From IMG/VR virus record IMGVR_UViG_2839589109_000007, positions 3,871-67,870 of that record: a stretch of DNA of 64,000 nt; one strand, 5' to 3'. Positions 23,021-60,887 of this stretch are shown piece by piece. The translations under genes and the position numbers were made by a program. Below the pieces are notes generated by a model that saw only the letters and a program-made list of their open reading frames with translations, had not been told where the DNA came from and ran no database searches. Positions within the stretch are counted from its first letter, which is position 1. Each line of letters starts with the position of its first letter. Source of the DNA: a virus (Duplodnaviria; Caudoviricetes).

Positions 23021-23046
23021 TTGCACCTTCGTCGATGTTATTGCAC
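22981..23046. other. Putative attL of prophage B
   Basis: GC-rich coding arm then GTGCAAT-13bp-ATTGCAC (23000-23026) and a further ATTGCAC (23040-23046), just upstream of the recombinase SD. Confidence 0.55.
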
Positions 23047-23062
23047 GATTATAGGAGGCATT

Positions 23063-24673
23063 ATGACGATAATAAAAACAATGGACTCAACGATTACACG
23101 GACGACCTACTGTTACTCATATCACCGCATCTCAACTCGTAACCAGTTAAAAGGTGGCGGTATTAAACGCCAGATAGAAGACAGTTCCAGATTCTGCGAA
23201 GCACAGAACTGGGTGATGGATACGACCTTCAAACTCACCGATATCGGCACCTCTGCCTACCATGGTAAAAACCTTGATGATCGTGCTGCACTTGGGAGCT
23301 TTCTCAAAGCGGCGGATGATGGCCTCGTTAAACGTCCTGCTGTCCTTCTGGTGGAAAGTCTGGATCGATTAAGCCGGGCAAATATCATGGATGCTCTGGA
23401 ACTGTTTATTCGTATATTGAATGCCGGTATTTCTATCTGCACTTACCACGACCGGATGATATACAGCAAGGAAAGTATTCAGGCCAATTTCGGCCCACTA
23501 CTTATTTCTATTACCATTATGTGCCGGGCTCATGAAGAAAGTGAGACAAAATCAAAACGAGTTAAAAGAAGCTGGATTCAGATGCGTGAGAAAATCCGGA
23601 ATGGGGGCATTGGCAGCAAAAAAATATATCCAAAATGGATATCAACAGAGAGTGGGAGGCCAGAAATCATTGAAAGCGAAGCTAAAATAATTCGAGAAAT
23701 TTTTGATCTTTGTGTCAATCACAATATGAGCTATACAGATATTATTGTCGAAATGAGAAAACGACACAATAACAATATTAATTTAAGGAGTTATCAGCTC
23801 AATCGCCTTTTTCGTCATAAAAATGTTCTTGGAATATACTGTACTACTGGCGCTCAAGCAGGAGAGGAAATTAAGGCATATCCTGCCATTATCAGCGAGG
23901 ATATGTACTATAAAGCCAAAGCTCTAATTAAAGAGCGGATTTCAGTCCGGGTTGGTCAACCAACGAAGTATGAAATTAATTTTTTTAAAACCAAACTATC
24001 CTGTGGAGATTGCGGTTACGCAATTACATCCAATAGGGCAAACAGGTCGACCTCTTACCTTTGCAGAGAAAAACTTAAAACAAAGACTGCCTGCAAACAA
24101 AGTTCAAAGATAACGGCTAAAAAATTTCAACCCGTCCTTTTGTACGCCATCTCACTGATCGACAAAGACGATATGCTGGAAAGTGCTGCTAACAGTAAGA
24201 AGGCCAAGCTCTCCAAGGCAATCAATACTAAACAGGCTGAGCTAGAAGATAAGCAAACTCGTATGGATAACCTTGCTGATCTGGTTGCAGCCGGGTCCAA
24301 AAAAGGAGTTCAGATGGTGGTTCAGCTTGAGGGCGAAGTTGATACTATCCTGCAAGATATAGCAACAATGCAAGACCAGCTGGATATGCTTAATTCGCCC
24401 ACTATGGCCGCAAGCATTGATCACGCAAACGAGTTTGGCAGGAAATTTATTCTTGGGCAGGCCACCAAGGAAGATCAGGAGCCATTCGTTCAAGCACTTG
24501 GAAATATAGTGGAAAAGATAGTAATTCATTCTCCTGAGAAAGAAGGCCAGAGAACCATTGCCATTATTAAACTGCTTTCAGGTATAGATATAAGGGTTGT
24601 AGTAGAAAAGGATTATTCCGCAGATATTTTCAAGGGGAAAAAACGTATCGGCCGCTTTACACCGAAGGGGTAG
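23063..24673 (+). CDS. Large serine recombinase (integrase)
   Basis: YSYHRISTRNQ catalytic Ser motif, LLVESLDRLSR, AHEESETKSKRV, YPAIISED recombinase domain, CGDCG...YLC...C zinc ribbon, coiled coil; AGGAGG SD. Confidence 0.95.
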   Translation: MTIIKTMDSTITRTTYCYSYHRISTRNQLKGGGIKRQIEDSSRFCEAQNWVMDTTFKLTDIGTSAYHGKNLDDRAALGSFLKAADDGLVKRPAVLLVESLDRLSRANIMDALELFIRILNAGISICTYHDRMIYSKESIQANFGPLLISITIMCRAHEESETKSKRVKRSWIQMREKIRNGGIGSKKIYPKWISTESGRPEIIESEAKIIREIFDLCVNHNMSYTDIIVEMRKRHNNNINLRSYQLNRLFRHKNVLGIYCTTGAQAGEEIKAYPAIISEDMYYKAKALIKERISVRVGQPTKYEINFFKTKLSCGDCGYAITSNRANRSTSYLCREKLKTKTACKQSSKITAKKFQPVLLYAISLIDKDDMLESAANSKKAKLSKAINTKQAELEDKQTRMDNLADLVAAGSKKGVQMVVQLEGEVDTILQDIATMQDQLDMLNSPTMAASIDHANEFGRKFILGQATKEDQEPFVQALGNIVEKIVIHSPEKEGQRTIAIIKLLSGIDIRVVVEKDYSADIFKGKKRIGRFTPKG

Positions 24674-29635: not shown

Positions 29636-30045
29636 TACTTGTCCTCCAGCCGTTCATACTTCACGGCCACTTTTTTGGGTTTGGTGGTGATGGCTTCTGC
29701 GACAATGGTGTAGTGAGCCGGATCAAGCAGCTGCAAGCTCTTCAACTGTTTGATGTTCAGTTCTACTTTGGTGCGAACAAGCCCTGCTGACAGTGATTGC
29801 GGGATACGCTTTTTGACGTCTTCCCACTTTTTCTGATCAAGGGTTCTGGTGAACCCTGCAGACGTTGTTACCTTGTAGTAGTCACCTTTGATGGACTGGC
29901 TTCCCTCATCTTTTACGCCCACCATATCGCACAACTTCTGTTCAATATCGAGGCGGTGATTCCTGGCATGCTCTTCGGATTTTTTAGCCCGCTCTAACTC
30001 GTAGGCGAGTTTGTCCAGCCGTGAAGCATCATTGCTTTCGGTCAT
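29635..30045 (-). CDS. Phage hypothetical protein of the Sak4 recombination module
   Basis: ATG overlaps with AAA gene; GDYYKVT...RTLDQ...RTKVELN...KPKKVAV. Confidence 0.7.
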   Translation of the reverse strand: MTESNDASRLDKLAYELERAKKSEEHARNHRLDIEQKLCDMVGVKDEGSQSIKGDYYKVTTSAGFTRTLDQKKWEDVKKRIPQSLSAGLVRTKVELNIKQLKSLQLLDPAHYTIVAEAITTKPKKVAVKYERLEDK

Positions 30046-30084
30046 AGCAATTCCTTTTGTTGTGGTTTTGGGGTGGGTCAGCCG

Positions 30085-30390
30085 TTAACTGGCCTGTTTA
30101 TCCTCTGATTCCAGAAGCTCTTGCAGCTCAGGGACTCGATGCAATTCGGGGTATCCCTGGTTCCCGGATGTATCAATGAGGATGCCATTGGTGGTAAACA
30201 GCGCAGGGATCTGCTTGTCCGGAAGGTTGTCTTTTAATTCTGAGAGAAGATCAATGAGCAGGTTGCGGGTCTTTTCCAGGTCATTCCGTAATTTTGCGGC
30301 ACGGAGATCAAGGGCTTGAGCTTCCTGCTCCATGGTTAATACATCGTTGGCGGTTACTCCTATTACCGTTTTCTGATCAGCAAGTGTCAT
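30085..30390 (-). CDS. Phage hypothetical protein, first gene of leftward operon of B
   Basis: 101-aa coiled-coil ORF downstream of intergenic promoter region. Confidence 0.6.
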   Translation of the reverse strand: MTLADQKTVIGVTANDVLTMEQEAQALDLRAAKLRNDLEKTRNLLIDLLSELKDNLPDKQIPALFTTNGILIDTSGNQGYPELHRVPELQELLESEDKQAS

Positions 30391-30505
30391 TGTCGCTTAC
30401 CGTTTAGAGTTATTGTTCAATCAGTAAGCATTAGACTGCCAACAGCAAAAACCGCTGTCAACGAAAAAATAAACTTTCCTAATATTTTTTGTTTTTTGTA
30501 TTTCG

Positions 30506-31132
30506 CTAAGGAAGGCAAAAACAGCCAATAGCCTGTCCGATGTAGTTATCTCTTAACACCGAAAGGGACTGAAACCGGGGGTTGTTGAACACCAGCATAG
30601 ACTGGCAGTTGAGTTCTTCATAAGTCCCCAGGACGGGTCCCTGATCCTGAAAAAGGCACACCTTACCTGCTTCAGCTGACAACTTCGGATCAATAAACAC
30701 CAGAGAACCATTGGGGTAGCTGGTACACGGCATGCCATGGTTATCCATTGATGAGCCGGTCACGGTCAGGCAGAAAGCCTGCTCACTGCAATCCACCGGA
30801 CAATTGCGCCAGGCCACATCATCCGGGGCTATCCGGTTAACCACCCAATCGGCAATATCCCCATCGGTCAAATGCGGCAGTGCCCTGCCAATACTCACTG
30901 TTGGCTCGACAGCACCTTTACCGGAGATAATGTAATGGGGATCAACATTGAGAACCGTGGCAATTTCATACTGCATTTTCAGGACATTTTTATCGGTAAA
31001 ACTGACGTTGTCCCCGAGCCAGATGGACACGGTGGGCTTTGTCACGCCCAGTTTTGCCGCCAGCTGAGTCTGTGTCATTTTTCTCTTCTTCAGGAGAACT
31101 TTTACCCTATCCTTCCAGCTCGTCATTGCCAT
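30506..31132 (-). CDS. CI-like repressor (XRE HTH + S24-like domain)
   Basis: MTQTQLAAKLGVTKPTVSIWL HTH; CPVDCSEQAFCLTVTGSSM...YPNGSLVFIDP...NNPRF. Confidence 0.9.
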   Translation of the reverse strand: MAMTSWKDRVKVLLKKRKMTQTQLAAKLGVTKPTVSIWLGDNVSFTDKNVLKMQYEIATVLNVDPHYIISGKGAVEPTVSIGRALPHLTDGDIADWVVNRIAPDDVAWRNCPVDCSEQAFCLTVTGSSMDNHGMPCTSYPNGSLVFIDPKLSAEAGKVCLFQDQGPVLGTYEELNCQSMLVFNNPRFQSLSVLRDNYIGQAIGCFCLP

Positions 31133-31299
31133 CTTCCTTATCTGTCCTGCCCCAATTATCAGGAAATAGTGAAAGTGAGTAAACCAACAAGCCTACTCCA
31201 ATACAGAAAACACTAAACATATTTGATTAAATAAGTTTATCGCGATAATAATTTAAGTCCCGACCATGAAGCCCAACACTAAACAAGGAGGTTGCGCCA

Positions 31300-31533
31300 A
31301 TGGATAAGCCTACGCCGGGAGAAATTATCAGGACTTATCGGGAATGTCGCGGTATGACACTGACCAGTTTGAGCAGAGTGCTGTACTGCTCCAAGTCTGA
31401 ACTGTCTCTGTTTGAGAACAACCGAAAGCCCATCGGCAAACTCAGAAGACTGCTCTGGTCAACCATTATCCCGGAATGGACACCGGATATGCTCACCCAC
31501 AAAGGGCAAAAGCCCTGCAATGACTGGCAATAA
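31300..31533 (+). CDS. Cro-like XRE HTH protein
   Basis: IIRTYRECRGMTLTSLSRVLYCSKSELSLFENNRK; divergent from CI; AAGGAGG SD. Confidence 0.8.
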   Translation: MDKPTPGEIIRTYRECRGMTLTSLSRVLYCSKSELSLFENNRKPIGKLRRLLWSTIIPEWTPDMLTHKGQKPCNDWQ

Positions 31534-31560
31534 CAATAACCACTCACAGGACAGCATGAC

Positions 31561-33558
31561 ATGGAAGCCAATTTGCCGGACACCGCCACACAAGCCTGGA
31601 AACTGAATGAAGCAGGACTTTCAATTGTCCCGCTCGGTTCACCTTTTGAAGAACCGCCCAATTGGTTTGTAGAAGGGCGCTGCTCAGGGGATGTCAAGAA
31701 AGCAAAAATGGAATGGCCAAAAGCACCGCGGTTTCGCTGGAAACAATATCAGGAAGAAGCCCCTGATGACAGCGCGATCGATAACTGGACAAGGCTCTAC
31801 CCGCATACCAATTGGGCCATCATTACCGGGTACAGGGTTGTGGTAGTGGATGCGGACAGTACAGAAGCGGTGCAGTTTATTGAAGAAGGTACCATTACCC
31901 GGACTCCCCTTCGCGCAAAAACCAGTAAGGGAATGCACTTCTACTATCAGGTTAACCCGGACTTTCCTATTCACAACTCCGTTCGCAAAAACAAGATCGA
32001 TTTGCGGGGAATCGGTGGTTATGTGGTTGCACCGGGCAGCACCCATGCCGACGGAACGCTCTATCAGTGGGAAACCGTTGGGTATATGGACATCTCTGAC
32101 TTTCACGACCTGCCTATGCTGACGCCTGATGATATTGCCGCCATCAATGGTTTCAATGGTCAGTCCATTGAAGATAAAACGGTGGGTGACCTGGGTTTCT
32201 CCACCGATCAATACCCTCTACCGCACGACGGAAGCAATCTGGCAGAAGGACAAGGTCGGAATAATGCAGCCGCCAGTATGGCAGGACAGCTGATCCGGCA
32301 GAATTATTCTCTCAGAGAAGTAAAAGCCATTCTGGATCAGTGGAACCAGTCTAATAATCCACCACTGTCTGATGCTGAGTTGAATACCACCATAGCCAGT
32401 ATCTCCAAAACACACACCAATAATAATCCCGGTTCATCCATTCTTATTGAGCCTCTGCCCGTTACTAAACCTGAGTTTGCCTTCAGCCATGTGAAAGAGC
32501 TGGTTAAGGGAGTCAAGCCGATCAACTGGCTTATCAAGGGTTTTCTGGAAATGGACAGTCTGTCGTTGATGTTTGGTGAACCTGCCTGCGGTAAATCGTT
32601 CTCTGCCATTGATCTGGCCTGCTGCGTGGCCACAGGGAAGGATTGGCATGGTAAGCAGGTTAAGCGTTCGGGGCCGGTCTTTTATATCGCCGGGGAAGGA
32701 TTTAATGGTCTCTCCCGTCGCCTAATGGCATGGCAGGTATCCCACGGCTACAACCTGCGAAATGCACCGATCTACATCAGCCAGTGTGCCGCCTCTCTCA
32801 CAGACCTGGGCAATGCCCGTCTGGTCAGTGCCAGTATTGAGGAAATTGTGGAAGAAACTGGTGGTGTGATTCCTTCAATGATTGTTATTGATACCCTGGC
32901 CAGAAATTTTGGTCCAGCTGACGAGAATGCCACTAGGGAGATGAATACCTTCATCAACCACATCGACCAGCTGCTCCGGGCGAAATACCAGTGCAACGTA
33001 TTGATTGTCCACCACACCGGCGTGGGATCGAAAGATCGTGCTCGTGGCAATAGTGCCCTCAAAGGTGCACTGGATGCTGAGTATGCAGTGGTGAAATCAG
33101 ACGACGAGATCACAATTACCGCCAAAAAGATGAAGGACGCAGATGAACCAGACCCCATCAAATTTCTGTTTCACCCTGTCCGGTTGCCTTTCGTGGATGA
33201 AGAAGGTGAGCCTCAATACAGCTGTATTTTGAAAGAGTACGACCCCTCCCAGCTGCAAAGCTTGAAGGTAAAAAAAGGGCTTGAAACAGTCCTTGGAGAA
33301 CGGCAGAGAAAAATTCTGGAAACATTGAATCGGCTGACCGGCAGTGCCCAGGAAAATCTGCGTAAGGACGGGCGTGATCCTTCACTGGCAAAAATTGAAT
33401 TAAGAAACCTGAAAGACGACTGCTATGAGCAGGGTTTTATTGGCTCCAAGCACTGGCGCAGAACGATTAATGCCCTGGTCGAGCGTGATTTATTAACGGT
33501 GGAAGAACCCTTTGTTCTTGTCTCTGAAAAGGGACAGGAGGCACTCAATAATGAGTAA
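31561..33558 (+). CDS. Bifunctional primase-polymerase + PriCT + RepA-type (AAA_25) helicase
   Basis: NWAIITG...VVDAD, TSKGMHFYY, IDLRGIGGYVVAPGSTH; EGQGRNNAAASMAG; FGEPACGKSF, VIDTLARNF, VHHTG, RGNSALKGALD. Confidence 0.93.
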   Translation: MEANLPDTATQAWKLNEAGLSIVPLGSPFEEPPNWFVEGRCSGDVKKAKMEWPKAPRFRWKQYQEEAPDDSAIDNWTRLYPHTNWAIITGYRVVVVDADSTEAVQFIEEGTITRTPLRAKTSKGMHFYYQVNPDFPIHNSVRKNKIDLRGIGGYVVAPGSTHADGTLYQWETVGYMDISDFHDLPMLTPDDIAAINGFNGQSIEDKTVGDLGFSTDQYPLPHDGSNLAEGQGRNNAAASMAGQLIRQNYSLREVKAILDQWNQSNNPPLSDAELNTTIASISKTHTNNNPGSSILIEPLPVTKPEFAFSHVKELVKGVKPINWLIKGFLEMDSLSLMFGEPACGKSFSAIDLACCVATGKDWHGKQVKRSGPVFYIAGEGFNGLSRRLMAWQVSHGYNLRNAPIYISQCAASLTDLGNARLVSASIEEIVEETGGVIPSMIVIDTLARNFGPADENATREMNTFINHIDQLLRAKYQCNVLIVHHTGVGSKDRARGNSALKGALDAEYAVVKSDDEITITAKKMKDADEPDPIKFLFHPVRLPFVDEEGEPQYSCILKEYDPSQLQSLKVKKGLETVLGERQRKILETLNRLTGSAQENLRKDGRDPSLAKIELRNLKDDCYEQGFIGSKHWRRTINALVERDLLTVEEPFVLVSEKGQEALNNE

Positions 33559-33583
33559 TTATTTTGATTATTTTTTGATCAGA

Positions 33584-33745
33584 AAAGAGCCCCCCTACCC
33601 ATTTTTTTCTTTTCTGATTTTAAAGAGCCCCTCTATCCCCCTGAACCCCTTTATTTTCAAGAGTTTCGGGCGAGTTGATGCCTTTAGCCGACGCACCCCA
33701 CCCCACCCACTCTCTCTATAGAGAGTGGTGGACAAGGGGGGGCAA
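33584..33745. other. Putative replication origin of prophage B
   Basis: Direct repeats AAAGAGCCCC(C/T)CTA(C/T)CC at 33584 and 33622; hairpin CCACTCTCT-CTAT-AGAGAGTGG (33707-33728); pyrimidine-to-purine strand switch just after the primase. Confidence 0.45.
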
Positions 33746-33811
33746 GGGAAGCATGGCAAAAGCGAGGGTTAGGGAGCCTTATTGGAAGGGATATTTTAAG
33801 GACAAGTAATT

Positions 33812-34279
33812 ATGAAAATAGTGATAGGAATAGATCCGGGACTGACGGGAGGTATAGCGGTTCTGGAGAGTGAGAGTAAGGAGTTAATCAAAGTCGTAGA
33901 TATGCCCATTATTCCCGAGGGAAGCAAGAAAAAAGTAAGCGGTCATGGCTTGATGAAAATATTTGGTGGCTATACCCGGCATCAGGTGGAGATGGTCTAT
34001 CTGGAAAAGGTGGGAGCAAGGCCAGGACAGGGCGTGGTCTCCATGTTTAACTTTGGCCGTTCGTATGGTGCTGTAGAAGCTGCAGTCAGCTTAATGGGTT
34101 TTCCCCTTACCTATGTAACTCCCCAACGCTGGAAACGCTCTGCTGGACTTATGGGAGCTCACAAGGATGCATCGAGAGGAAAAGTGTTAGACCTCTACCC
34201 GGAGGCTGACGTTCATCGAAAAAAAGACAATGGACGTGCTGATGCTGTGCTCATTGCCCGATATGGAGAATCGGTATGA
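33812..34279 (+). CDS. RuvC-like Holliday junction resolvase
   Basis: VIGIDPGLTGGIA, VYLEKVGARPGQGVVSMFNFG, VTPQRWK, GRADAVLIA. Confidence 0.9.
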   Translation: MKIVIGIDPGLTGGIAVLESESKELIKVVDMPIIPEGSKKKVSGHGLMKIFGGYTRHQVEMVYLEKVGARPGQGVVSMFNFGRSYGAVEAAVSLMGFPLTYVTPQRWKRSAGLMGAHKDASRGKVLDLYPEADVHRKKDNGRADAVLIARYGESV

Positions 34280-34839
34280 AATTCTACTCAGCAAGACAGG
34301 CTATTCACGATGCCTATGCTATTCATCTGACCAGCAAGGGTTTTGAAGTTAACCCCTTGGCATTTCAGGCTGGTAGTCAATCGAGCAAGTTGGACAACAA
34401 CCTGTTGATCTGCAATACCGTAGAAGCTGGCAAAGTGATTGCGGCAGTAGAAAAACTTGATGAGCCATTTCGTTCCTGGGCAAAGTGGGCCTATGGACCA
34501 AGAACTGAGCACTTGCTACCTGAGCAAAGACGGTTCTTTCAGTGGTTGGAGCAGGATGTTACAGAGAGGCTGGCGGAGAGTGAGCGGGATTATCGGGAGG
34601 TGACACAACAGAGGATCAGGGATGTGGTGGCCTATACCGTTCTGGATTATCGAAGCTTTGTAACCACCGGTCAGCATTTTTACCCAGTTAGTCAGATTAT
34701 TAAAAAATGCCGAATTCATAAACAAAACTGGAAGCGTGACTTTTCACTTTGGAATGCCCTTTACTGGGATCAATGTGATCATTTTTTTGACAGCGAAACA
34801 CTGAGGAATATTGCCAAATCTATTGCATTGCTAGAGTAG
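34276..34839 (+). CDS. Putative late-gene antiterminator (Q-like)
   Basis: MKFYSARQAIHDAY N-terminus resembles Q-position proteins of pseudomonad-type prophages; last early gene before lysis. Confidence 0.55.
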   Translation: MKFYSARQAIHDAYAIHLTSKGFEVNPLAFQAGSQSSKLDNNLLICNTVEAGKVIAAVEKLDEPFRSWAKWAYGPRTEHLLPEQRRFFQWLEQDVTERLAESERDYREVTQQRIRDVVAYTVLDYRSFVTTGQHFYPVSQIIKKCRIHKQNWKRDFSLWNALYWDQCDHFFDSETLRNIAKSIALLE

Positions 34840-34930
34840 AGGTAAGTAGTTGGATTTGATTTAACCAACTGCTGAGCTTTAATGATTTGCTAAAATAGAT
34901 TTGCAAGTTTTTTTGTCTGCACGAAGGAGC

Positions 34931-35221
34931 ATGGTTATGGAGTACTGTCCTTTTTGTGATGAAGCACTGGATAAAATTTCAAGAAAGCTTAAAAGATTAG
35001 AGAATCAAAATAAAAAGCTTCGATCTCAGATTGAAGAATTGAGTGAAGATGATGAACTACATACAGAATATTTTGTTGGTAGTAAATCAAGAAGCACCTT
35101 TCATAGACCGGATTGTGTTTGGGTAGAGAACCTTCTCTGCTCAAACAGACTTGTCGAGTTTTACTCTCACGAAGAAGCAGTTGATGCTGGTTACAAGCCT
35201 TGTAAATCCTGTAGAGCTTAA
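34931..35221 (+). CDS. Ada-type metal-binding domain protein (moron)
   Basis: FVGSKSRSTFHRPDC...EEAVDAGYKPCKSC; N-terminal CPFC and coiled coil; AT-rich; AAGGAG SD. Confidence 0.8.
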   Translation: MVMEYCPFCDEALDKISRKLKRLENQNKKLRSQIEELSEDDELHTEYFVGSKSRSTFHRPDCVWVENLLCSNRLVEFYSHEEAVDAGYKPCKSCRA

Positions 35222-35240
35222 TAACTGGGGAAGTAATGAT

Positions 35241-35540
35241 ATGAGTAATATCATTGATTTTAACAAAGAAAACAAATGGATGGGGCGAGGCTCAGAAGAA
35301 TTATTGATGGAGGATATCCGTAATGCTGAAGCAAACTTCCTAATAATTGCTTGCAGGGATCATAACCCGAGTAATATGTTTGGTGGTGACTCTAAGATGT
35401 GGCTCGAAGAAAATAAAGGGCGTTTTCCAAAAGCAGGTAGATACAAAGTTTGCTTTTCTTGCCCTGAATCACAGGGAAAGCCAGATTATTTCGGACTGGA
35501 AGAAGATACATTAAAAATCATTCACATTTCCCGCTTGTAG
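35241..35540 (+). CDS. Hypothetical protein (AT-rich moron)
   Basis: ATG 35241 after GGGGAAG; 99 aa; no family recognised. Confidence 0.6.
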   Translation: MSNIIDFNKENKWMGRGSEELLMEDIRNAEANFLIIACRDHNPSNMFGGDSKMWLEENKGRFPKAGRYKVCFSCPESQGKPDYFGLEEDTLKIIHISRL

Positions 35541-35614
35541 TCTCAAGTGTGAAAAATCTTAACGTCATGGAGTTGCCAATGATTACTGAATAAGGCATAG
35601 TTATTCAACATGCA

Positions 35615-35647
35615 GAGCCTCACCCAGAAATGGTGTGGGGTTTTTTT
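35615..35647 (+). terminator. Intrinsic terminator before lysis cassette of B
   Basis: GCCTCAC-CCA-GAAA-TGG-T-GTGGGGT followed by T7. Confidence 0.65.
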
Positions 35648-35681
35648 ATTGCCCCAATTTTTTCCCTGTGCAGGACGCACC

Positions 35682-35957
35682 ATGACTGACCTCTCCGACC
35701 GTCTGGATCGCATTGATGTGAAGCTGGACAAACTGAGCGAGGCAGTATCCCAGCTTGCTCGCATTGAAGAACGTATTTCTCATCAGAACGACAACATGAA
35801 TCAGCTGGATTCTAGGCTGAGTGAGATGGAAGCCCGGATCAGGGCCTTGGAGCTTCAGGGTAGCTCTCGTGGTGTTCTGCTGGCCGGTATTGAACGACTC
35901 GGCTGGTTGGTCGTGTCTGCACTGATTGGCCTGGTTGCCTTCTTCTTCAGGAAATGA
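35682..35957 (+). CDS. Small coiled-coil protein with C-terminal TM helix (XhlA-like, lysis-associated)
   Basis: RLDRIDVKLDKL...LARIEER; hydrophobic LGWLVVSALIGLVAFFF tail. Confidence 0.65.
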   Translation: MTDLSDRLDRIDVKLDKLSEAVSQLARIEERISHQNDNMNQLDSRLSEMEARIRALELQGSSRGVLLAGIERLGWLVVSALIGLVAFFFRK

Positions 35958-35961
35958 AGCG

Positions 35962-36387
35962 ATGATTCCAAGGACGGAAACCAATTACATCGTGATCCAT
36001 TGTTCAGCTACCCGGGCAGATCAGGAAGTCACCGCAGACGATATCCGACGCTGGCATGTGGAAGACAATGGTTGGTCAGATATCGGGTATCACTGGATCA
36101 TTGAGCGAAGTGGCAAGATTCAGCATGGCAGAGATGCTCAGGTTCAGGGTGCTCATGTTCGAGGTCATAACCATGAGTCCATGGGTATCTGTCTGGTGGG
36201 TGGAATAGCTGAAAATGGTGATCCTGAAGACAACTTCACTTCTCAACAATGGTTGATGCTGGAAATGCTGGTTGAATCCCTGCTGCTGCGTTATCCAGAG
36301 GCTCAAGTGGTTGGTCATTACTATTTCACTCCCTACAAAACCTGCCCAAACTTTGTGGTTGAGCACTGGTTGGAGACCATCGAATGA
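35962..36387 (+). CDS. Endolysin, N-acetylmuramoyl-L-alanine amidase (T7 lysozyme type)
   Basis: IVIHCSAT, GWSDIGYHWII, GAHVRGHN...SMGICLVGG, VVGH, KTCPNF. Confidence 0.95.
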   Translation: MIPRTETNYIVIHCSATRADQEVTADDIRRWHVEDNGWSDIGYHWIIERSGKIQHGRDAQVQGAHVRGHNHESMGICLVGGIAENGDPEDNFTSQQWLMLEMLVESLLLRYPEAQVVGHYYFTPYKTCPNFVVEHWLETIE

Positions 36388-36752
36388 GCTGGACTGCTGC
36401 AATTCCTCTACTGGGTAAGGTGATTGAGCGCATCATTCCGGATCCTGACAAAGCTGCCCAGGCGAAAAAACAACTGGTGGATATGGCGGTTAAAGGTGAG
36501 CTGGATGAACTGGCTCAGCGTGCGGGGGTTATCAAGGCAGAGGCTCAAGGTGATGGTTGGCTACAACGATCCTGGCGTCCCATCGTGATGCTGGTATTTA
36601 CTGCCCTGATTGTTGCCAGGTGGTTGGGCTGGTCAGCACCGGATTTGTCAGAAGCGGTCGAACTCAAGCTGTTCTCTATCGTTCAGATTGGCCTTGGTGG
36701 TTACATTGCCAGCCGGGGCATTGAGAAGGTGGCGGACAAGATAAGGCGCTAA
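36384..36752 (+). CDS. 3TM holin family protein
   Basis: IERIIPDPDKAAQAK, AEAQGDGWLQRSWRP, IGLGGYIASRGIEK. Confidence 0.88.
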   Translation: MSWTAAIPLLGKVIERIIPDPDKAAQAKKQLVDMAVKGELDELAQRAGVIKAEAQGDGWLQRSWRPIVMLVFTALIVARWLGWSAPDLSEAVELKLFSIVQIGLGGYIASRGIEKVADKIRR

Positions 36753-36754
36753 GG

Positions 36755-37315
36755 ATGGCAGCGAAAAAGTACAAAATGGTGGATCGAAAGGTCAGCGATT
36801 TGATCCCGTATGTAAACAACTCCCGGGTTCACGATGAAGAGCAGATTATCCAGATTTGTTCGTCTATCAAGGAGTTTGGCTTTACCAATCCTGTGTTGAT
36901 TGACGAAGAAAACGGGATTATTGCTGGCCATGGACGTTTGATGGCAGCAAAGAAATTGAACCTGAAAACCGTTCCCTGCATTGTGTTGGCGGGACTATCG
37001 GAAGCCCAGAAGAAGGCCTACGTCATAGCGGATAATTCCATAGCCCTGAATAGCTCATGGGATATGGACGTACTATCCCGCGAAGTGGAAGCCCTGCAAG
37101 CAGAAGACTTTGATCTGAATCTACTCGGGTTTAAGGATGACTTTATGGTCAGCCTGTTCGATGATCCTGCCCCTGAACCGGAACAGAAACCCAATGGTGA
37201 GGAATACACCGAAATCTTCAATATCCTGGTGGAGTGTGACAACGAAGCCCATCAGCAGGAAATCTACGACGAACTGACACAGAAGGGACTGAAATGCCGA
37301 GTTCAAAGTTTGTAG
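36755..37315 (+). CDS. ParB/Srx N-terminal domain protein
   Basis: LIPYVNNSRVHDEEQI...SIKEFGFTNPVLID...IAGHGRLMAA...YVIADN. Confidence 0.92.
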   Translation: MAAKKYKMVDRKVSDLIPYVNNSRVHDEEQIIQICSSIKEFGFTNPVLIDEENGIIAGHGRLMAAKKLNLKTVPCIVLAGLSEAQKKAYVIADNSIALNSSWDMDVLSREVEALQAEDFDLNLLGFKDDFMVSLFDDPAPEPEQKPNGEEYTEIFNILVECDNEAHQQEIYDELTQKGLKCRVQSL

Positions 37316-38361
37316 TGGAGTCCGCTATCAAGCCTTCCTTTCGCACTGAGAAGGTCAAGGGGATGTTTGATATTGATATGCAGTCGGTGAAGAAGGAGTT
37401 CGACGTAGATATTCCCATTGAGGACAAGCCCTGGAATATCGGCCTGATTGTTGGTGCCAGTGGTTCTGGCAAGACGACCATTGCCAGAGAAGTATTCAAG
37501 GACTTTGAACTATTCTGCGGTTACCAGTGGTCAGACCGCTCCGTAGTGGACGATTTCAGCGAAGACCTGAGTGCCAAGCAGATTACGGAATCATTGAGCA
37601 AGGTAGGGTTTTCTTCTCCCCCGGACTGGTTGAAGCCGTTTTCTGTGCTCTCCAATGGCCAGAAGATGCGGGCAGAACTTGCCAGGCTGATCCTGGAATC
37701 CGATAAGCCGGTCATCTACGACGAGTTCACTTCGGTAGTGGATCGTCAGGTGGCCAAGATCGGCAGTGCCGCTATCCAGAAGTTTATCCGTAAAGAGGAT
37801 AAGCAGTTTATTGCAGTCAGCTGTCATTACGATATTGTCGAATGGCTGCAACCGGATTGGGTTTACGACTGCAACAAGCATATCTTCAAACGGAGGCGTC
37901 TTCGACGACCTGAAATCCGTATCGATGTCCGCAAAGCCGACCAGTCAGAGTGGCCATTATTTAGGCCATTTCACTATCTGAGCAGTGTTCACAACCGGTC
38001 AGCCCATAAATACATTGCTGAGATCAATGGTGAGCCTGTAGGCTGGTGCAGCGTCTTACACTTTCCTCACCCGAGCAACAAGAAGCTGAAACGACTGCAC
38101 AGAACGGTGGTATTGCCCGATTATCAGGGACTGGGGATTGGCTTTCAGTTGCGCTGCTATATCTGCGAGTTGTACCGGAAACAGGGCTACAAGGTGAATA
38201 CCGTTACCACGTCGCCTGCCTTAATCCATGCCATGAATAAATCGGACCGTTGGATTATGACCCGTAAACCGGGGCGGGTGGGTATGCCTGCCCAGTCAAT
38301 CCTGAGCAAGCATTCGTTCGATCGGTTGACCTGTTCATTCCAATACGTGGGCAATGAATGA
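37294..38361 (+). CDS. ABC-type ATPase fused to GNAT acetyltransferase (Mom-like candidate)
   Basis: GASGSGKT Walker A, LSNGQ signature, VIYDEF Walker B, SCHYD H-loop; FHYL, LHRTVVLPDYQGLGIG acetyl-CoA motif. Confidence 0.88.
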   Translation: MPSSKFVVESAIKPSFRTEKVKGMFDIDMQSVKKEFDVDIPIEDKPWNIGLIVGASGSGKTTIAREVFKDFELFCGYQWSDRSVVDDFSEDLSAKQITESLSKVGFSSPPDWLKPFSVLSNGQKMRAELARLILESDKPVIYDEFTSVVDRQVAKIGSAAIQKFIRKEDKQFIAVSCHYDIVEWLQPDWVYDCNKHIFKRRRLRRPEIRIDVRKADQSEWPLFRPFHYLSSVHNRSAHKYIAEINGEPVGWCSVLHFPHPSNKKLKRLHRTVVLPDYQGLGIGFQLRCYICELYRKQGYKVNTVTTSPALIHAMNKSDRWIMTRKPGRVGMPAQSILSKHSFDRLTCSFQYVGNE

Positions 38362-38506
38362 ACATTCAATAGGATCAATTCTACGTCGATTTGGCGGGTT
38401 GTTCGATATTTTCGATAGGTTATATGATCAATATTCAAACGTCGTGTGGTGACGATTTACCGGTGTTTGGTGATGATCCGATAGTGCATGAATAATCATC
38501 AAACTC

Positions 38507-38534
38507 AAAAAAAGCAGGCATCGTTGCCTGCTTT
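38507..38534 (-). terminator. Intrinsic terminator (possibly bidirectional)
   Basis: AAAGCAGGCA-TCGT-TGCCTGCTTT with A7 on its left, between convergent genes. Confidence 0.8.
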
Positions 38535-38554
38535 GTGAGGAATTGAATCCGGGA

Positions 38555-38881
38555 TTAAATGCGGAATGTCTCCTCGTCCTTTTTGCCTCCGTTTTTAAAG
38601 CATTCGGACAGGTCATCAACTGCAGATTTCAAGGCACTGATAATGGCGGTGGATTGAGCATCGGTGTACTCATATTTGTCATCGTTGGCCAATGATGAAA
38701 TAGATTTCAATACCCGCAGGGCTTTGGGTACACGAATGTTTGCCAGTTCAGCAAATTTTTCAGAATCGGACTTTTTGCTTTTCTTGTCAGTGTTTTTATT
38801 AGCCATGGTTTTATCTCCTTTTGCGTTCTTCTTATCAACAGTTTTAGCAGTGGTTTTAGCGGTGTTTTTATGAGTAGTCAT
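38555..38881 (-). CDS. Small basic protein with Lys/Thr-rich N-terminus and two possible starts
   Basis: AAGGAGA SD before ATG 38881 and before in-frame ATG 38806; core KFAELANIRVPKAL...KYEYT. Confidence 0.7.
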   Translation of the reverse strand: MTTHKNTAKTTAKTVDKKNAKGDKTMANKNTDKKSKKSDSEKFAELANIRVPKALRVLKSISSLANDDKYEYTDAQSTAIISALKSAVDDLSECFKNGGKKDEETFRI

Positions 38882-39044
38882 GATGTATCTCCTTCGTTTT
38901 GTTTAATGTTTTTACACTTTAACTATGGGTGAACTGCCGTATATCTCAAACTTTATTCTGCTGTTTAAATCTCTCTATACGGTTGATATAACAATGCTTT
39001 TCCCCGTAGGTAATGGCTTTCAAACTGTCAAATTACAAACAACG

Positions 39045-39210
39045 TGGGTCCCTGCAATGTTTAGTTTTTTGCGGGTGCGAGGGGGCGCGGATTTGCGTTA
39101 GTGACAGGTCTGAAAACGAGGTATACCCTTGGTATACTTTTTGGCATTAACCAGCTGAAAACTAATAAGAAAATCCAGTTTCAAAAATGGTGCAGCAGGT
39201 ATACTTTTTA
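39045..39210 (+). other. Putative cos region of prophage B
   Basis: GGGTCCC...GCGGGTGCGAGGGGGCGCGG...CGTTAGTGACAGG in non-coding DNA about 1 kb upstream of Nu1-like terS, plus repeated GGTATAC motifs; pattern recalled from GpA-terminase prophages. Confidence 0.45.
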
Positions 39211-39240
39211 TTCAAACCAGTGCCGTCCTTGGCGGTTGCG

Positions 39241-39636
39241 TTACTGTCGCTTTTCAAGCCATTGCTGAATCGTTAATTCTCTGGGAAGGCGCTGCTGAAG
39301 CCAGTCATCAATCAGCTGCTCTACCAGTTTTCTGAACTGTTTTTCATCCGGGAAATCCCACGGCTCAAATTCCTGGTTCTGCTCACACAAGGCAATCCAG
39401 AGTTGTGCAGCCAGCGTTTCAGAGATTTCATAATCAAACACGCCGGGAAAGCCTTCCTCATCATTTTTGGAATGTTCGATCTCGCTGATGATCTGGCTAT
39501 AACGGCAAAGGTTATGAATCAGCTCCAGTTCTCCATCACCAAATAACTCAGCCGGTGTTCGGGCCTGGTCGCTTAATCGGTCAATAACGCCAGTACAGAA
39601 ATAGTAATGGGTGATCAATTGGGCTTCATTATTCAT
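39241..39636 (-). CDS. Hypothetical acidic protein
   Basis: 131-aa ORF co-oriented with DUF3768-like gene. Confidence 0.65.
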   Translation of the reverse strand: MNNEAQLITHYYFCTGVIDRLSDQARTPAELFGDGELELIHNLCRYSQIISEIEHSKNDEEGFPGVFDYEISETLAAQLWIALCEQNQEFEPWDFPDEKQFRKLVEQLIDDWLQQRLPRELTIQQWLEKRQ

Positions 39637-39651
39637 GGTTTTTCTCCGTTA

Positions 39652-40005
39652 TTAATAGTCGATGGCCAGCATGATGGTCAGCACCCGAACGGTATTGTTT
39701 AAATCCGAGGCATCTTCCGAACCGTGTTCCATATCCGGGGCGTAATAATCAAACTTGGCAATGATCCATTCATCTTCAAACTTGAATCGGAAACAATCGT
39801 GTTCGCCATAGGGATCATTCTGCTCATTGAAGTGGTTAAATTCGGAAACGGCTTTCAACAAACCGACTTTGTTCTCAATGGTGTTTTGCAGGTTGGCGGT
39901 CATCACTATTTCAAACCGGCAGTTGATCAGGGCAAGACTGTTCTTCACTTCCAGATTCACCAGTGACTGTCGCACGGCATCATTTAACGTGGCAATTTCA
40001 TTCAT
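39652..40005 (-). CDS. DUF3768 family protein
   Basis: FNEQNDPYGEHD...AKFDYY...GSEDASD...TVRVLTIMLA; AAGGA SD before ATG 40005. Confidence 0.8.
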   Translation of the reverse strand: MNEIATLNDAVRQSLVNLEVKNSLALINCRFEIVMTANLQNTIENKVGLLKAVSEFNHFNEQNDPYGEHDCFRFKFEDEWIIAKFDYYAPDMEHGSEDASDLNNTVRVLTIMLAIDY

Positions 40006-40130
40006 AACTACATCCTTTATTGATTCATTTTTTGTTGTCGCAGTAGCTCTATAGGGGATGGCCACGATAAGTCGAGAAAATTTAAGACAAATGTCCATAT
40101 TGAATGAGATGGCTGTAGGTATGACTTCCC

Positions 40131-40607
40131 ATGGCGCTGATTTCACAAGCGGAATTTGCCAGGCAGCAGGGCTTTACCAAAGGCTATGTCACCAAGCTGA
40201 TCAAAAAGGGCATTGTGAAACTGAAAAATGGCAAGGTGGATTCGGTGCAGGCTGAGCAGGCCATGAAAGCCAATAGTGACCCGGTGACGTTGATCCGTTC
40301 CGATCAATCCACCGATCTTGCACCGACACAACCGGGAGCCGTTGACTTTGTCACTGCCCGCACCATGCGGGAGGCGTTCAAGGCCAAGATGGCCAAGCTG
40401 GAGTATGAAGAAAAAAGCGGTACCCTGACCGATGCAGCCAAGGTAAAACAGGATGCTTTCAAGGCAGGCCGGATTATTCGAGATGAACTGCTGGCCATTC
40501 CTGATCGAATGGCGGATGTGCTGGCGGCGGAGGATGATCCCCGGGAAGTGGGGAAAATACTTCAGGAAGAGCTGGAAACGATACTGAATAAGCTATCAAA
40601 CCATTAG
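40131..40607 (+). CDS. Terminase small subunit (Nu1-like)
   Basis: ISQAEFARQQGFTKGYVTKL HTH; AKLEYEEKSGTL...RDELLAIPDRMA. Confidence 0.88.
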   Translation: MALISQAEFARQQGFTKGYVTKLIKKGIVKLKNGKVDSVQAEQAMKANSDPVTLIRSDQSTDLAPTQPGAVDFVTARTMREAFKAKMAKLEYEEKSGTLTDAAKVKQDAFKAGRIIRDELLAIPDRMADVLAAEDDPREVGKILQEELETILNKLSNH

Positions 40608-40864
40608 TTACCAGATTTGTTCGGACAAGGTATTTGTCCCTTCCATTGAAGCAGGCTGGCTAACTTCTCTTTCAGAGGCATGTCGGCAAAATGGTGGTTG
40701 ATGGTCTTGCAACATACGACCTTGTTTTCCACGGTATCTTTTCCTCCAAGGCTCTTGGGTATTACATGGTCAATGCTGGCATCAGCTGGTTTCAAGGTAC
40801 ATCCACAATAAAAGCAGTTATTGCCCTGTAACCATAAAAGACGCTGTAGCTGTGACTTGGCCAT
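40604..40864 (-). CDS. HNH endonuclease, antisense between terS and terL
   Basis: CFYCG...SIDHVIPKSLGGKDTVENKVVCC...N; AAGGTGA SD. Confidence 0.85.
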   Translation of the reverse strand: MAKSQLQRLLWLQGNNCFYCGCTLKPADASIDHVIPKSLGGKDTVENKVVCCKTINHHFADMPLKEKLASLLQWKGQIPCPNKSGN

Positions 40865-40886
40865 TGATCATCACCTTTTTGTTCTT

Positions 40887-42734
40887 ATGTCATCACCATA
40901 CATCATAGGCTTTTTTGCGGGCTTGAAACCAGACACCCGCCTGACCGTTTCCGAATGGGCTGACCAAAAACGGATTCTTCCGGCAAAAGCCACCAAAGAA
41001 GCAGGACGCTGGCGAACTTCCCGCACACCATATCTGAAAGAAATTATGGATTGTCTGTCACCATCGTCGTCTGTGGAACAGGTGGTGTTTATGAAAGGTG
41101 CCCAGGTGGGTGGCACCGAATGCGGCAATAACTGGCTTGGTTATGTGATTGACCATACGCCGGGTCCGATGATGTATGTGCTTCCCACGCTGGATATGGC
41201 CAAGCGGACATCGAAGCAGCGGATTGCTCCGATGATCGACGAAATGCCGGATCTTCAGGAGAAGGTTAAAGACCCGAGAAGCCGGGACAGTGGCAATACC
41301 CTGCTGACCAAGGAGTTCCCCAATGGTGTGCTGATCTTTACTGGAGCCAATTCAGCTGCAGGCCTGCGCTCGATGCCTGCCCGTTTTCTGTTTATGGATG
41401 AGGTGGATGCCTACGACGATGATGTGGATGGCGAAGGCAGTCCCATCAATCTGGCCATCAAGCGAACGGCCACCTTCAGCCGTAACCGAAAAATCCTGAT
41501 GGTCAGCACACCCAATATTGCAGAAACCAGCAAGATTGAAGCGGCTTATGAGAGCAGTGATAAACGACGCTATCTGGTCCCCTGCAATAGCTGTGGACAC
41601 TACCAACCAATCGTCTGGGCTCAGATCATTTTTGATAACCATGACCCGGCAACCACCCGGTTTGAGTGTGTGCAGTGTGGTCATAAGCACTATGAAAAAG
41701 ACAAACCGAAACTGCTTACTAATGGCCATTGGCAAGCTGAAACTGAAAAGAGCAATAAGGTCGCTGGATTCCACCTGAGTTCGCTTTACAGCCCTAATGG
41801 CTGGTACAGCTGGCAAAATGCAGTAGAGGATTTCCTCGCCGCCAAGAGTAATCCGGTACAGTTCAAGGACTGGACCAATACTGTGCTTGGCGAGACTTGG
41901 ACGGAACAAGGTGAGACTGTTGAGCATAGTTTGCTCTACCAGCGACGGGAACATTATCCGGCAGAGGTGCCCTGGTGGGTGGAGATACTGACGGTTGGTT
42001 GTGATGTCCAGGATGACCGCTTTGAGTTTGAAGTAACCGGCTGGGGTTCTGGTGAGGAAAGCTGGTCAATTGATTATGTCCGTTTATACGGTGACTTATC
42101 CCGACAAGGTATCTGGGATGCTCTGGCCGATATGCTCCATAAAACCTACACCCGTCAGGATGGCACCAAAATAAATGTGGCTCAGGTCTGCATAGACTCT
42201 GGTGGCCACTACACCGATGAAGTGTATGCCTTCTGTCGTAAGCAGGGAGCCGATTGGGCGATTCCGGTTAAGGGTTCCTCTCAGGCTGGCAAACCTATCG
42301 CTACATTTCCCAAAACCAAAAACAAGAAAGGGGTCTACCTGACACTGGTCGGCACCGATACCGCCAAGGAGTTGGTCTATCAACGCTACCGGGTATTGGA
42401 GCCTGGACAAGGCTACTGCCACTGGCCGATCAAGGACTGCTTTGATGAAGATTATTTCAAGCAGGCCACCGCAGAAGAAAAGATCAAGAAATACCGGCTC
42501 GGTGTCCCTTACTTTACCTGGGATGCCAAGAACCGCCGGAATGAGGCGTTGGATTGCCGGGTATACTCACTGGCCGCGATCCGTATTCTTCAGCAGCACC
42601 GGGGCATTAATCTGGAGCTACTCACCAAAGGCCGACCAGCACCAGAAGATACGCCTGATCCTGAATTGGAAGAAACCAGCAACAAGCCAAAAACACTCCG
42701 TCGTTCATCCCGCAGTTCCTACCTTCAGAGATAA
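40887..42734 (+). CDS. Terminase large subunit (lambda GpA family)
   Basis: LTVSEWAD, RTPYLKEIMD, MKGAQVGGT, LFMDEVDAY, STP, GCDVQDDR, DSGGH, RNEALDC. Confidence 0.96.
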   Translation: MSSPYIIGFFAGLKPDTRLTVSEWADQKRILPAKATKEAGRWRTSRTPYLKEIMDCLSPSSSVEQVVFMKGAQVGGTECGNNWLGYVIDHTPGPMMYVLPTLDMAKRTSKQRIAPMIDEMPDLQEKVKDPRSRDSGNTLLTKEFPNGVLIFTGANSAAGLRSMPARFLFMDEVDAYDDDVDGEGSPINLAIKRTATFSRNRKILMVSTPNIAETSKIEAAYESSDKRRYLVPCNSCGHYQPIVWAQIIFDNHDPATTRFECVQCGHKHYEKDKPKLLTNGHWQAETEKSNKVAGFHLSSLYSPNGWYSWQNAVEDFLAAKSNPVQFKDWTNTVLGETWTEQGETVEHSLLYQRREHYPAEVPWWVEILTVGCDVQDDRFEFEVTGWGSGEESWSIDYVRLYGDLSRQGIWDALADMLHKTYTRQDGTKINVAQVCIDSGGHYTDEVYAFCRKQGADWAIPVKGSSQAGKPIATFPKTKNKKGVYLTLVGTDTAKELVYQRYRVLEPGQGYCHWPIKDCFDEDYFKQATAEEKIKKYRLGVPYFTWDAKNRRNEALDCRVYSLAAIRILQQHRGINLELLTKGRPAPEDTPDPELEETSNKPKTLRRSSRSSYLQR

Positions 42735-60613: not shown

Positions 60614-60887
60614 TAGGCAAGACCGGAGTGAACAATAATTACACTGCGCGGTCAAAAATCAGCAAGATGCCCTCAATGATTTCATATATGTTGGCAGTTA
60701 TAGGAGCAAGCATCACGTAGAAGAGGATCCAGAACAGTAGCGATTTTGGCCAGACATCAGACATACCTAATGGTAAGGGTAGATAAATTAAATGAGTTCA
60801 CGGACAGTAGAAAAAAACGATAGAATCAGAACCTTGATCCATGAACATAGCAACCTTTTACACTGCAGGGATGTTAAGAGAGATACT

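Follow-up and report, generated by a model that had tools for sequence, protein, structure and literature searches.

A prophage gene pair in which a ParB-like gene overlaps a gene for an ABC ATPase joined to a GNAT acyltransferase, ahead of the packaging genes, raises the question of which molecule is acylated. The pair lies in a 64,000-nucleotide (nt) window (i.e. the whole stretch of DNA that was analysed) of the IMG/VR record IMGVR_UViG_2839589109_000007 (Caudoviricetes; record positions 3,871-67,870). Two prophages are arranged in tandem in the window, A (approximately 1-24673) and B (approximately 24886-60300), and the ParB/ABC-GNAT module belongs to B. We tentatively favour a ParB-assisted, ATP-driven transfer of an acyl group to phage DNA, late in infection and before packaging. 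The initial annotation of the locus had likewise proposed an ATP-driven acyltransferase that modifies DNA together with ParB: this proposal fits all the comparative evidence and a published prediction, and the likeness to the Mu protein Mom that it also drew did not stand.

Domain make-up and coupling of the two proteins

The features of the module are as follows (window positions; aa, amino acids; SD, Shine-Dalgarno):

36755-37315, + strand: ParB-like protein, 186 aa (PF02195 ParB_N; phrog_620)
37283-37315, + strand: coupling region, with the SD-like AAGGGA at 37283-37288 and the fusion-gene ATG at 37294, within the last eight ParB codons
37294-38361, + strand: ABC ATPase-GNAT fusion protein, 355 aa (ABC_tran, Acetyltransf_1; phrog_11143)
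37294-37902, + strand: compact soluble ABC ATPase domain, aa 1 to approximately 203 (ABC_tran, 7.4e-8)
37453-37476, + strand: Walker A motif of the ABC domain
37648-37662, + strand: signature motif LSNGQ of the ABC domain
37711-37728, + strand: Walker B motif of the ABC domain, with the catalytic Glu
37819-37827, + strand: H-loop of the ABC domain
37915-38361, + strand: GNAT acyl-CoA N-acyltransferase domain, aa approximately 208-355 (Acetyltransf_1, 2.1e-9)
37972-37977, + strand: H227-Y228 dyad, invariant in homologues
38125-38142, + strand: acyl-CoA pyrophosphate loop QGLGIG of the GNAT domain

Both open reading frames (ORFs) and their overlap were recovered on the + strand as the initial annotation had described them, with profile matches to ParB-N and to the ABC and GNAT domains. 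The motifs that it had read in the 355-aa protein were all present: GASGSGKT (aa 54-61), LSNGQ (119-123), VIYDEF (140-145), SCH (176-178), FHYL (226-229) and YQGLGIG (277-283). The fusion protein matched phrog_11143, a family of unknown function, with an E-value of 2.3e-106 (residues 7-354 on profile positions 4-351 of 357), and its Pfam matches were restricted to ABC_tran and Acetyltransf_1/7/10. Conservation was scored in an alignment of 100 diverse homologues (35-84% identity): S56, G57, K60, L119, S120, G122, D143, E144, C177 and H178 of the ABC domain were invariant, as was the GNAT dyad H227, Y228, and R270, Q278, G279, G281, W320 and R344 were conserved in at least 90% of the sequences. 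The catalytic motifs are intact.

The AlphaFold2 (AF2) model of the fusion protein had a mean local confidence (pLDDT) of 95.2 and a predicted TM-score (pTM) of 0.88. The nucleotide-binding domains (NBDs) of transporters, themselves 220-260 aa long, aligned with the ABC domain at Z approximately 14.5 over 175-187 residues. Walker A K60 and signature L119 are 59 residues apart, and no invariant Gln (Q-loop) was found between the two motifs. With approximately 148 aa, the GNAT domain is a minimal GNAT and aligned over 134-137 residues with minimal GNATs such as RimI. Its best structural matches were RimI (5isv, Z 15.1), 1y9k (Z 14.9) and Naa50/Naa10/Ard1 (Z approximately 14), with the small-molecule acetyltransferases 2bsw and 1vhs, beside 1y9k, also among the top matches. 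Taken together, the motifs suggest an active ATPase, with ATP-dependent dimerisation as is usual for ABC ATPases, in one chain with an N-acyltransferase that uses acyl-CoA. The dN/dS ratio, calculated against three close relatives, was approximately 0.03-0.05 for both genes and indicates strong purifying selection.

The ParB-like protein scored above the cut-off of PF02195 (28.8 bits against 26.3; E = 1.3e-6) and matched phrog_620 (2.5e-57). It consists of an N-terminal ParB/Srx nucleotide-binding domain (aa approximately 1-95), which aligns with the ParB/Spo0J structures 4umk and 6sdk, a helical middle part and a small C-terminal domain (aa approximately 150-186). Residues 136-150 (approximately) are probably a flexible linker, by homology to the disordered residues 143-156 in the model of P0013, a natural fusion described below. 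In 143 partner ParBs, N22, R24, G58, R61, E164, Q167, G178 and C181 were conserved in at least 90% of the sequences; N22, R24, G58 and R61 were taken as nucleoside triphosphate (NTP)-binding residues, by comparison with the phosphate-binding arginines of CTP-binding ParBs. Assignment as a partition ParB was rejected: TIGR00180 gave 34.1 bits against a cut-off of 58.45, with the N-domain alone aligned. The neighbouring ORFs that were scanned gave no ParA-like match either.

The genetic coupling of ParB and enzyme is obligate. It was analysed in 201 loci drawn from annotated phages, IMG/VR contigs and species genomes, the upstream ParB being called by an iterated hidden Markov model. The upstream ORF was ParB-like in 172 of 192 loci, and the ParB stop lay exactly 22 nt past the inferred fusion-gene start in 142 of these 172. 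In the window, the 22-nt overlap (37294-37315) is dual-coding, and the fusion gene is in the -1 frame relative to ParB. The overlap is conserved at the nucleotide level with the consensus ATGCCGnnTnnnnAnnTTnTAn (117 distinct sequences); the corresponding protein ends are G-[YLF]-x-C-R-x-x-x-[LS] for ParB and M-P-x-x-x-[FIL]-V for the start of the enzyme. The pattern spans Streptococcus phage 315.4 to metagenome-assembled genomes (MAGs) of Planctomycetota and archaea. Because the ParB G178 and C181 codons coincide with the SD-like GG and the downstream ATG, the conservation of these two residues may in part reflect a nucleotide-level constraint of translational coupling. On one Methanoregulaceae MAG chromosome, three separate ParB and ABC-GNAT pairs were observed (L052, L054, L056), each with the 22-nt overlap.

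Natural single-chain ParB-ABC-GNAT fusions were found in at least 26 relatives. The junction of the triple fusion P0013 (…CRVQ|KFVV…) falls within the overlap; the linker was disordered in its AF2 model (pTM 0.67), and no ParB-enzyme interface was drawn from that model. A programmed -1 frameshift yielding a ParB-ABC-GNAT chain was also considered: the -1 frame and the P0013 junction fit, but the window overlap contains no slippery heptamer of the X XXY YYZ type. Translational coupling through the embedded SD and ATG would be the simpler reading.

Partners, genomic position and spread of the module

The N-terminal part of the ParB-like protein (aa approximately 13-135) shares up to 57% identity with the N-terminal end of DNA methyltransferases from phages, and it matched the ParB-DNA methyltransferase profiles phrog_498 (2.8e-51) and PADLOC MTase_II (PDLC03229; 1.1e-35). 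These methyltransferases share with the module the type of ParB N-terminal part and the late, pre-terminase region of phages; they differ in that the S-adenosylmethionine-dependent methyltransferase is fused in cis, whereas the ABC-GNAT enzyme is encoded by an overlapping gene or, in at least 26 relatives, fused. A full-length homologue of the ParB-like protein (42% identical) was found in the E. coli phage vB_EcoS-613R10 (L202, 4040-5714), between the lysis genes and the gene for the small terminase (TerS). There, the ParB gene and a following gene, which encodes a TET-associated glycosyltransferase (PF20691, 1.1e-34), share 8 nt. At this one genomic position, a single type of ParB occurs with any of three partners (a methyltransferase, a predicted DNA-base glycosyltransferase and the ABC-GNAT enzyme), and this swapping of partners is the strongest argument for a GNAT that acts on DNA.

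The vB_EcoS-613R10 pair is flanked by lysis genes and a trkG moron on one side and by TerS and the large terminase (TerL) on the other. A ParB C-terminal domain exclusive to ABC-GNAT partners was ruled out: the glycosyltransferase-coupled ParB aligned over 98% of the query.

A precedent for the role of ParB is provided by phage ParB-like proteins that activate DNA thymine dioxygenases (5mYOX plus ParB; PMC13229309). Like the ParB described here, they are small, consist of nucleotide-binding and C-terminal domains with no obvious helix-turn-helix (HTH) DNA-binding domain, and have conserved NTP residues; the enzyme that they activate is a neighbouring base-modifying one. The partner is an Fe/2-oxoglutarate dioxygenase in that case, and activation persisted when the NTP residues were mutated (PMC13229309). 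Frequent phage fusions to methyltransferases, and a ParB-acetyltransferase fusion that binds GTP, have also been reported in a survey of the ParB-CTPase fold (PMC12704722).

The position of the module was surveyed with 144 distinct ORFs that start at most 450 nt past the enzyme gene. Approximately 70 of these encode large terminases, of at least three unrelated Pfam types (Terminase_6N, 39; Terminase_3, 26; GpA, 4), and several others encode small terminases. A terminase gene also follows in Nonomuraea loci that have no recognisable ParB. The position ahead of the terminase is independent of terminase type. In the window, the gene order agrees with the placement of the pair, in the initial annotation, in the late region past the holin and ahead of the packaging genes. 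Prophage A carries a C5 cytosine DNA methylase gene (PF00145, 1.3e-40; 8117-9472, + strand) upstream of its own packaging genes, a slot positionally comparable to that of the module in prophage B.

No permease or transporter membrane domain was found among ten neighbouring ORFs scanned against domain and PHROG profiles, as the initial annotation had also noted for the vicinity of the pair, nor was a permease found in the homologue phage loci that were inspected.

Relatives of the fusion protein amount to more than 7,900 among 90%-identity clusters and to 628 representatives at E ≤ 1e-30 among 50% clusters. Homologues were found in 91 sequenced phage records, with hosts that include Streptococcus, Lactococcus, Gordonia, Arthrobacter, Porphyromonas, Leptospira, Vibrio, Aeromonas, Rhizobium, Pseudomonas, Klebsiella and Escherichia, and species-representative genomes gave at least 595 matches, including Planctomycetota, Nonomuraea, Chlamydiia and methanogenic archaea. 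The full-length phrog_11143 match, the number of relatives and the strong purifying selection indicate that the fusion is far beyond chance. In phages of Gram-positive hosts, the ABC and GNAT halves frequently occur as separate adjacent genes. Some enzyme homologues contain inteins: P0125 (715 aa) carries a Hint domain and a LAGLIDADG homing endonuclease in its ABC domain, and P0275 (694 aa) an intein-splicing domain. In the long homologues P0290, P0293 and P0294, the gene calls attach the enzyme to DNA polymerase A, a Mu-type portal or a terminase C-domain, possibly through read-through or errors of gene calling and not as true fusions.

Possible substrates of the acyltransferase

In the mechanism that we favour, the two genes form a module expressed late, in which the ParB-like protein would act as an NTP switch that recruits the homodimerising ABC-GNAT protein to phage DNA after replication, or turns it on at that site. 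Closure of the ABC dimer, driven by ATP, would make a nucleobase reachable by the GNAT active site, and an acyl group, most simply acetyl from acetyl-CoA, would be moved onto an exocyclic amine ahead of packaging by the terminase. The packaged DNA would thereby be shielded from host restriction. DNA as the substrate, the acyl donor, the role of ATP and the anti-restriction outcome are all points that we infer.

Several lines of evidence argue for acylation of DNA. ParB is coupled to the enzyme by neighbourhood, by the 22-nt overlap and by natural fusion, and this type of ParB also occurs with DNA methyltransferases and in the TET-associated glycosyltransferase pair. ParB-like activators of thymine dioxygenases offer a precedent; the recurrent position ahead of large terminases, together with the comparable methylase slot in prophage A, places the enzyme next to packaging; and no permease is close by. 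The enzyme itself is intact, with invariant ATPase motifs, a conserved CoA loop, a confident AF2 model and a low dN/dS. The same prediction has, in addition, already been made: acyl modification of DNA by ABC-GNAT proteins was reportedly predicted by Iyer, Zhang, Burroughs and Aravind in NAR in 2013, an article known to us through a citation of 2021. In that later article, Iyer et al. restated that the ABC ATPase-GNAT family is predicted to acylate a DNA base, and named Tenacibaculum phage pT24 as an example (PMC7824862). The predicted system and the module share family, architecture and phage context, and the pT24 homologue is 35% identical over 99% of the query (the cited accession itself was not compared). 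Nothing essential differs; the host lineage is new, i.e. an Endozoicomonas-type prophage with a gpA/HNH packaging module. No experimental characterisation of the family was found in a literature search.

The module is a further member of a recognised, already predicted family, and no new kind of system. New in this analysis are the quantified ParB linkage, the deep conservation of the 22-nt dual-coding overlap, the recurrent triple fusions, the swapping between methyltransferase and glycosyltransferase partners, and the independence of terminase type.

Some observations weigh against acylation of DNA. We infer the substrate from context; approximately 10% of the loci have no detectable ParB (e.g. 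T4-like Vibrio phage vB_VmeM-32, Tenacibaculum pT24 and Porphyromonas phages). The ABC domain is nearer to transporter NBDs than to the DNA-handling ABC ATPases SMC, Rad50 and UvrA, and the nearest folds of the GNAT domain are the protein N-terminal acetyltransferases RimI, Naa10/50 and Ard1. We know of no acyl-base in any phage that carries the gene, and no such report was found in the literature. Similarity to Mom, the GNAT for which action on DNA has been shown (PMC13219725), is also not significant.

The analogy with Mom, drawn in the initial annotation, proved weak. The check that it had called for, a profile and structure comparison of the GNAT half with Mom, gave probabilities of 0.3-0.4% and no Mom among the structural top 50, with RimI/Naa as the closest folds. 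No match to PF25680 (Mom) was found in the window protein at E ≤ 0.01 (Mu Mom itself, 2.4e-75), and membership of the Mom family was rejected because BLASTP, hhalign of the 100-sequence family profile against Mu Mom (0.4%) and alignment of the trimmed GNAT profile with the Mom-family alignment (0.3%) were all non-significant. Neither structure search placed Mom among its top 50, an absence that on its own proves nothing. Mom uses Gly-tRNA(Gly) rather than acyl-CoA and needs an HTH-like insertion, with H58 and Y59 important to its activity (PMC13219725). In the window GNAT, the conserved Q-G-x-G-x-G loop suggests acyl-CoA rather than an aminoacyl-tRNA as donor, and its approximately 148 aa leave little room for the 35-aa HTH-like insertion (Mom approximately 175-209), as judged from the RimI alignment and not from a superposition with Mom. 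Both are late-expressed GNAT folds with a His-Tyr dyad near the fold start (Mom H58/Y59, window H227/Y228), and the sole hhalign segment, statistically empty, places H227-Y228 on H58-Y59; the equivalent placement is suggestive. Mom shows no significant sequence or profile similarity to the enzyme, and it has neither an ATPase nor a ParB partner (PMC13219725). The likeness is limited to a late GNAT that may acylate a base.

Acetylation of a protein is an unlikely alternative that shares part of this evidence. The GNAT would act on the N-terminus or a lysine of a DNA-bound or packaging protein (terminase, portal, nucleoid or host defence protein). ParB would serve as a scaffold on the DNA or as an NTP-dependent regulator, and the ABC ATPase would provide a clamp or timer. 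The RimI and Naa10/Naa50/Ard1 matches (Z 14-15), the canonical acetyl-CoA loop and the adjoining terminase genes are consistent with it, and phage GNATs that acetylate host proteins are known, e.g. Rac of phiKMV-like phages (cited in PMC7824862). However, GNAT fold similarity at Z 13-15 is generic, and the same ParB type partners DNA-acting enzymes elsewhere. The family also occurs in many bacterial phyla and in archaea, so that such a target would need to be universal or phage-encoded, yet the adjoining terminases are unrelated. A small molecule or nucleotide (signalling nucleotide, antibiotic-like toxin or polyamine), acetylated for counter-defence or metabolism with ParB merely as an NTP-sensing regulator, seems a much less probable substrate. 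Many GNATs use such substrates, 1y9k, 2bsw and 1vhs are among the top structural matches, and ParB-fold proteins bind various NTPs, the reported ParB-acetyltransferase fusion binding GTP (PMC12704722); this account leaves unexplained the ParB type common to DNA methyltransferases and the DNA glycosyltransferase family, the fixed slot ahead of packaging genes, and the need for an ABC ATPase.

TmcA/NAT10 provides the best mechanistic analogy for an ATPase serving a GNAT: an N-terminal P-loop domain hydrolyses ATP, and this is coupled to the acetylation, by the GNAT, of an exocyclic amine of a nucleobase. An enzyme of this kind, in which the P-loop ATPase hands a cytidine or an aminoacyl-tRNA end to the GNAT and thereby retunes late translation or disarms tRNA-targeting defences, was considered and appears improbable here. 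The order of the domains is the same, TmcA (2zpa_A) ranked 11 in the Foldseek list across both domains, and the best NCBIfam match of the fusion protein, a weak one, was to ribosome-associated ABC-F proteins. In Streptococcus phage 315.4, the module is followed by a gene for an ASCH-domain protein, and a recent preprint reports ASCH proteins as erasers of N4-acetylcytidine (bioRxiv 10.64898/2026.02.27.708502). Against this, the 2zpa_A alignment had a root-mean-square deviation of 14.5 Å and a TM-score of 0.30, the ATPases belong to different classes (ABC versus helicase-type), and homology is limited to generic folds. TmcA also has extra tRNA-binding domains and an RNA substrate, no TmcA-specific Pfam domain was found in the fusion protein, and the link to ParB is left unexplained. 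ASCH was rejected as a regular partner (in a writer/eraser arrangement), as it was not among the recurrent downstream families.

Extended from this locus to its relatives, acylation of DNA would make ParB and ABC-GNAT a very large candidate family of phage DNA-modification systems, in bacterial and archaeal viruses, possibly writing an undiscovered N-acyl base just before packaging (e.g. N4-acetylcytosine or an N6/N2-acyl purine), with the ABC domain as base-access motor and ParB as loader; we put this forward with some reserve. If true, this would mean a widespread and new DNA base chemistry that escapes standard sequencing and does not survive harsh hydrolysis. Acyl-CoA-dependent, ATP-driven base modification would be added to the anti-restriction repertoire of phages, and ParB-fold activators of DNA-modifying enzymes would gain a second experimentally approachable case. 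Since the family is present in phages of cultivable hosts (Lactococcus, Streptococcus), these predictions are cheap to test.

Gene order in the window and transcription

The genes around the module in prophage B are as follows (TM, transmembrane):

34276-34839, + strand: Q-like antiterminator, followed by small ORFs, upstream of the module
35926-36387, + strand: amidase endolysin, upstream of the module
36384-36752, + strand: holin with 3 TM segments, directly upstream of the ParB gene
38511-38534, - strand: terminator-like hairpin (10-bp stem and T-run) in the 193-nt gap past the fusion gene, ending the convergent cassette 38555-40146
38555-40146, - strand: three-gene cassette between the module and TerS
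40131-40607, + strand: TerS (phrog_57, 2.8e-32)
40604-40864, - strand: HNH endonuclease (HNH_5, 3.6e-11)
40821-42734, + strand: gpA-type TerL (GpA_ATPase, 6.6e-94; GpA_nuclease, 6e-88)

The cassette encodes a Lys-rich 108-aa protein, a 131-aa protein without a family and a DUF3768 protein (5e-25). A nuclease near 60888, which the initial annotation had suggested the modification could counter, was not supported: the ORF at 60792-62903 (+ strand, 703 aa), just past the tail genes, matched no nuclease or defence family and no PHROG or PADLOC profile in the scans, and had a weak, sub-threshold match to a GHKL (HATPase_c) ATPase.

Contigs 100% identical to the window were found in four RNA-seq runs (X1-X4) of one study. 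In three runs, a single contig extended from approximately 33975, 34007 and 33999 to 38804, 38784 and 39029, respectively, and covered Q, the lysis genes, ParB and ABC-GNAT at a contig depth of 39-59; in the fourth, a contig ran from before 30001 to 38797. Contigs over TerS, TerL and the portal gene had depths of approximately 1-30. Such contigs give neither strand, ends nor level, DNA carry-over being possible, and they are a weak hint that the module is transcribed together with the lysis genes in culture.

The module is present in one copy in the genome, and its closest relatives are in Endozoicomonas prophages (96% identity). A 98%-identical module, closer than the Endozoicomonas records, is found on NZ_JAGHQW010000069.1, labelled Salinisphaera sp. 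G21_0; this label or relationship is perhaps doubtful. Prophage B also encodes a CI-like repressor, a primase-helicase and RuvC, in addition to Q, the lysis genes and the gpA terminase. Prophage A carries Erf and YqaJ recombination genes, an SU10-type portal gene and a serine recombinase gene (23021-24673).

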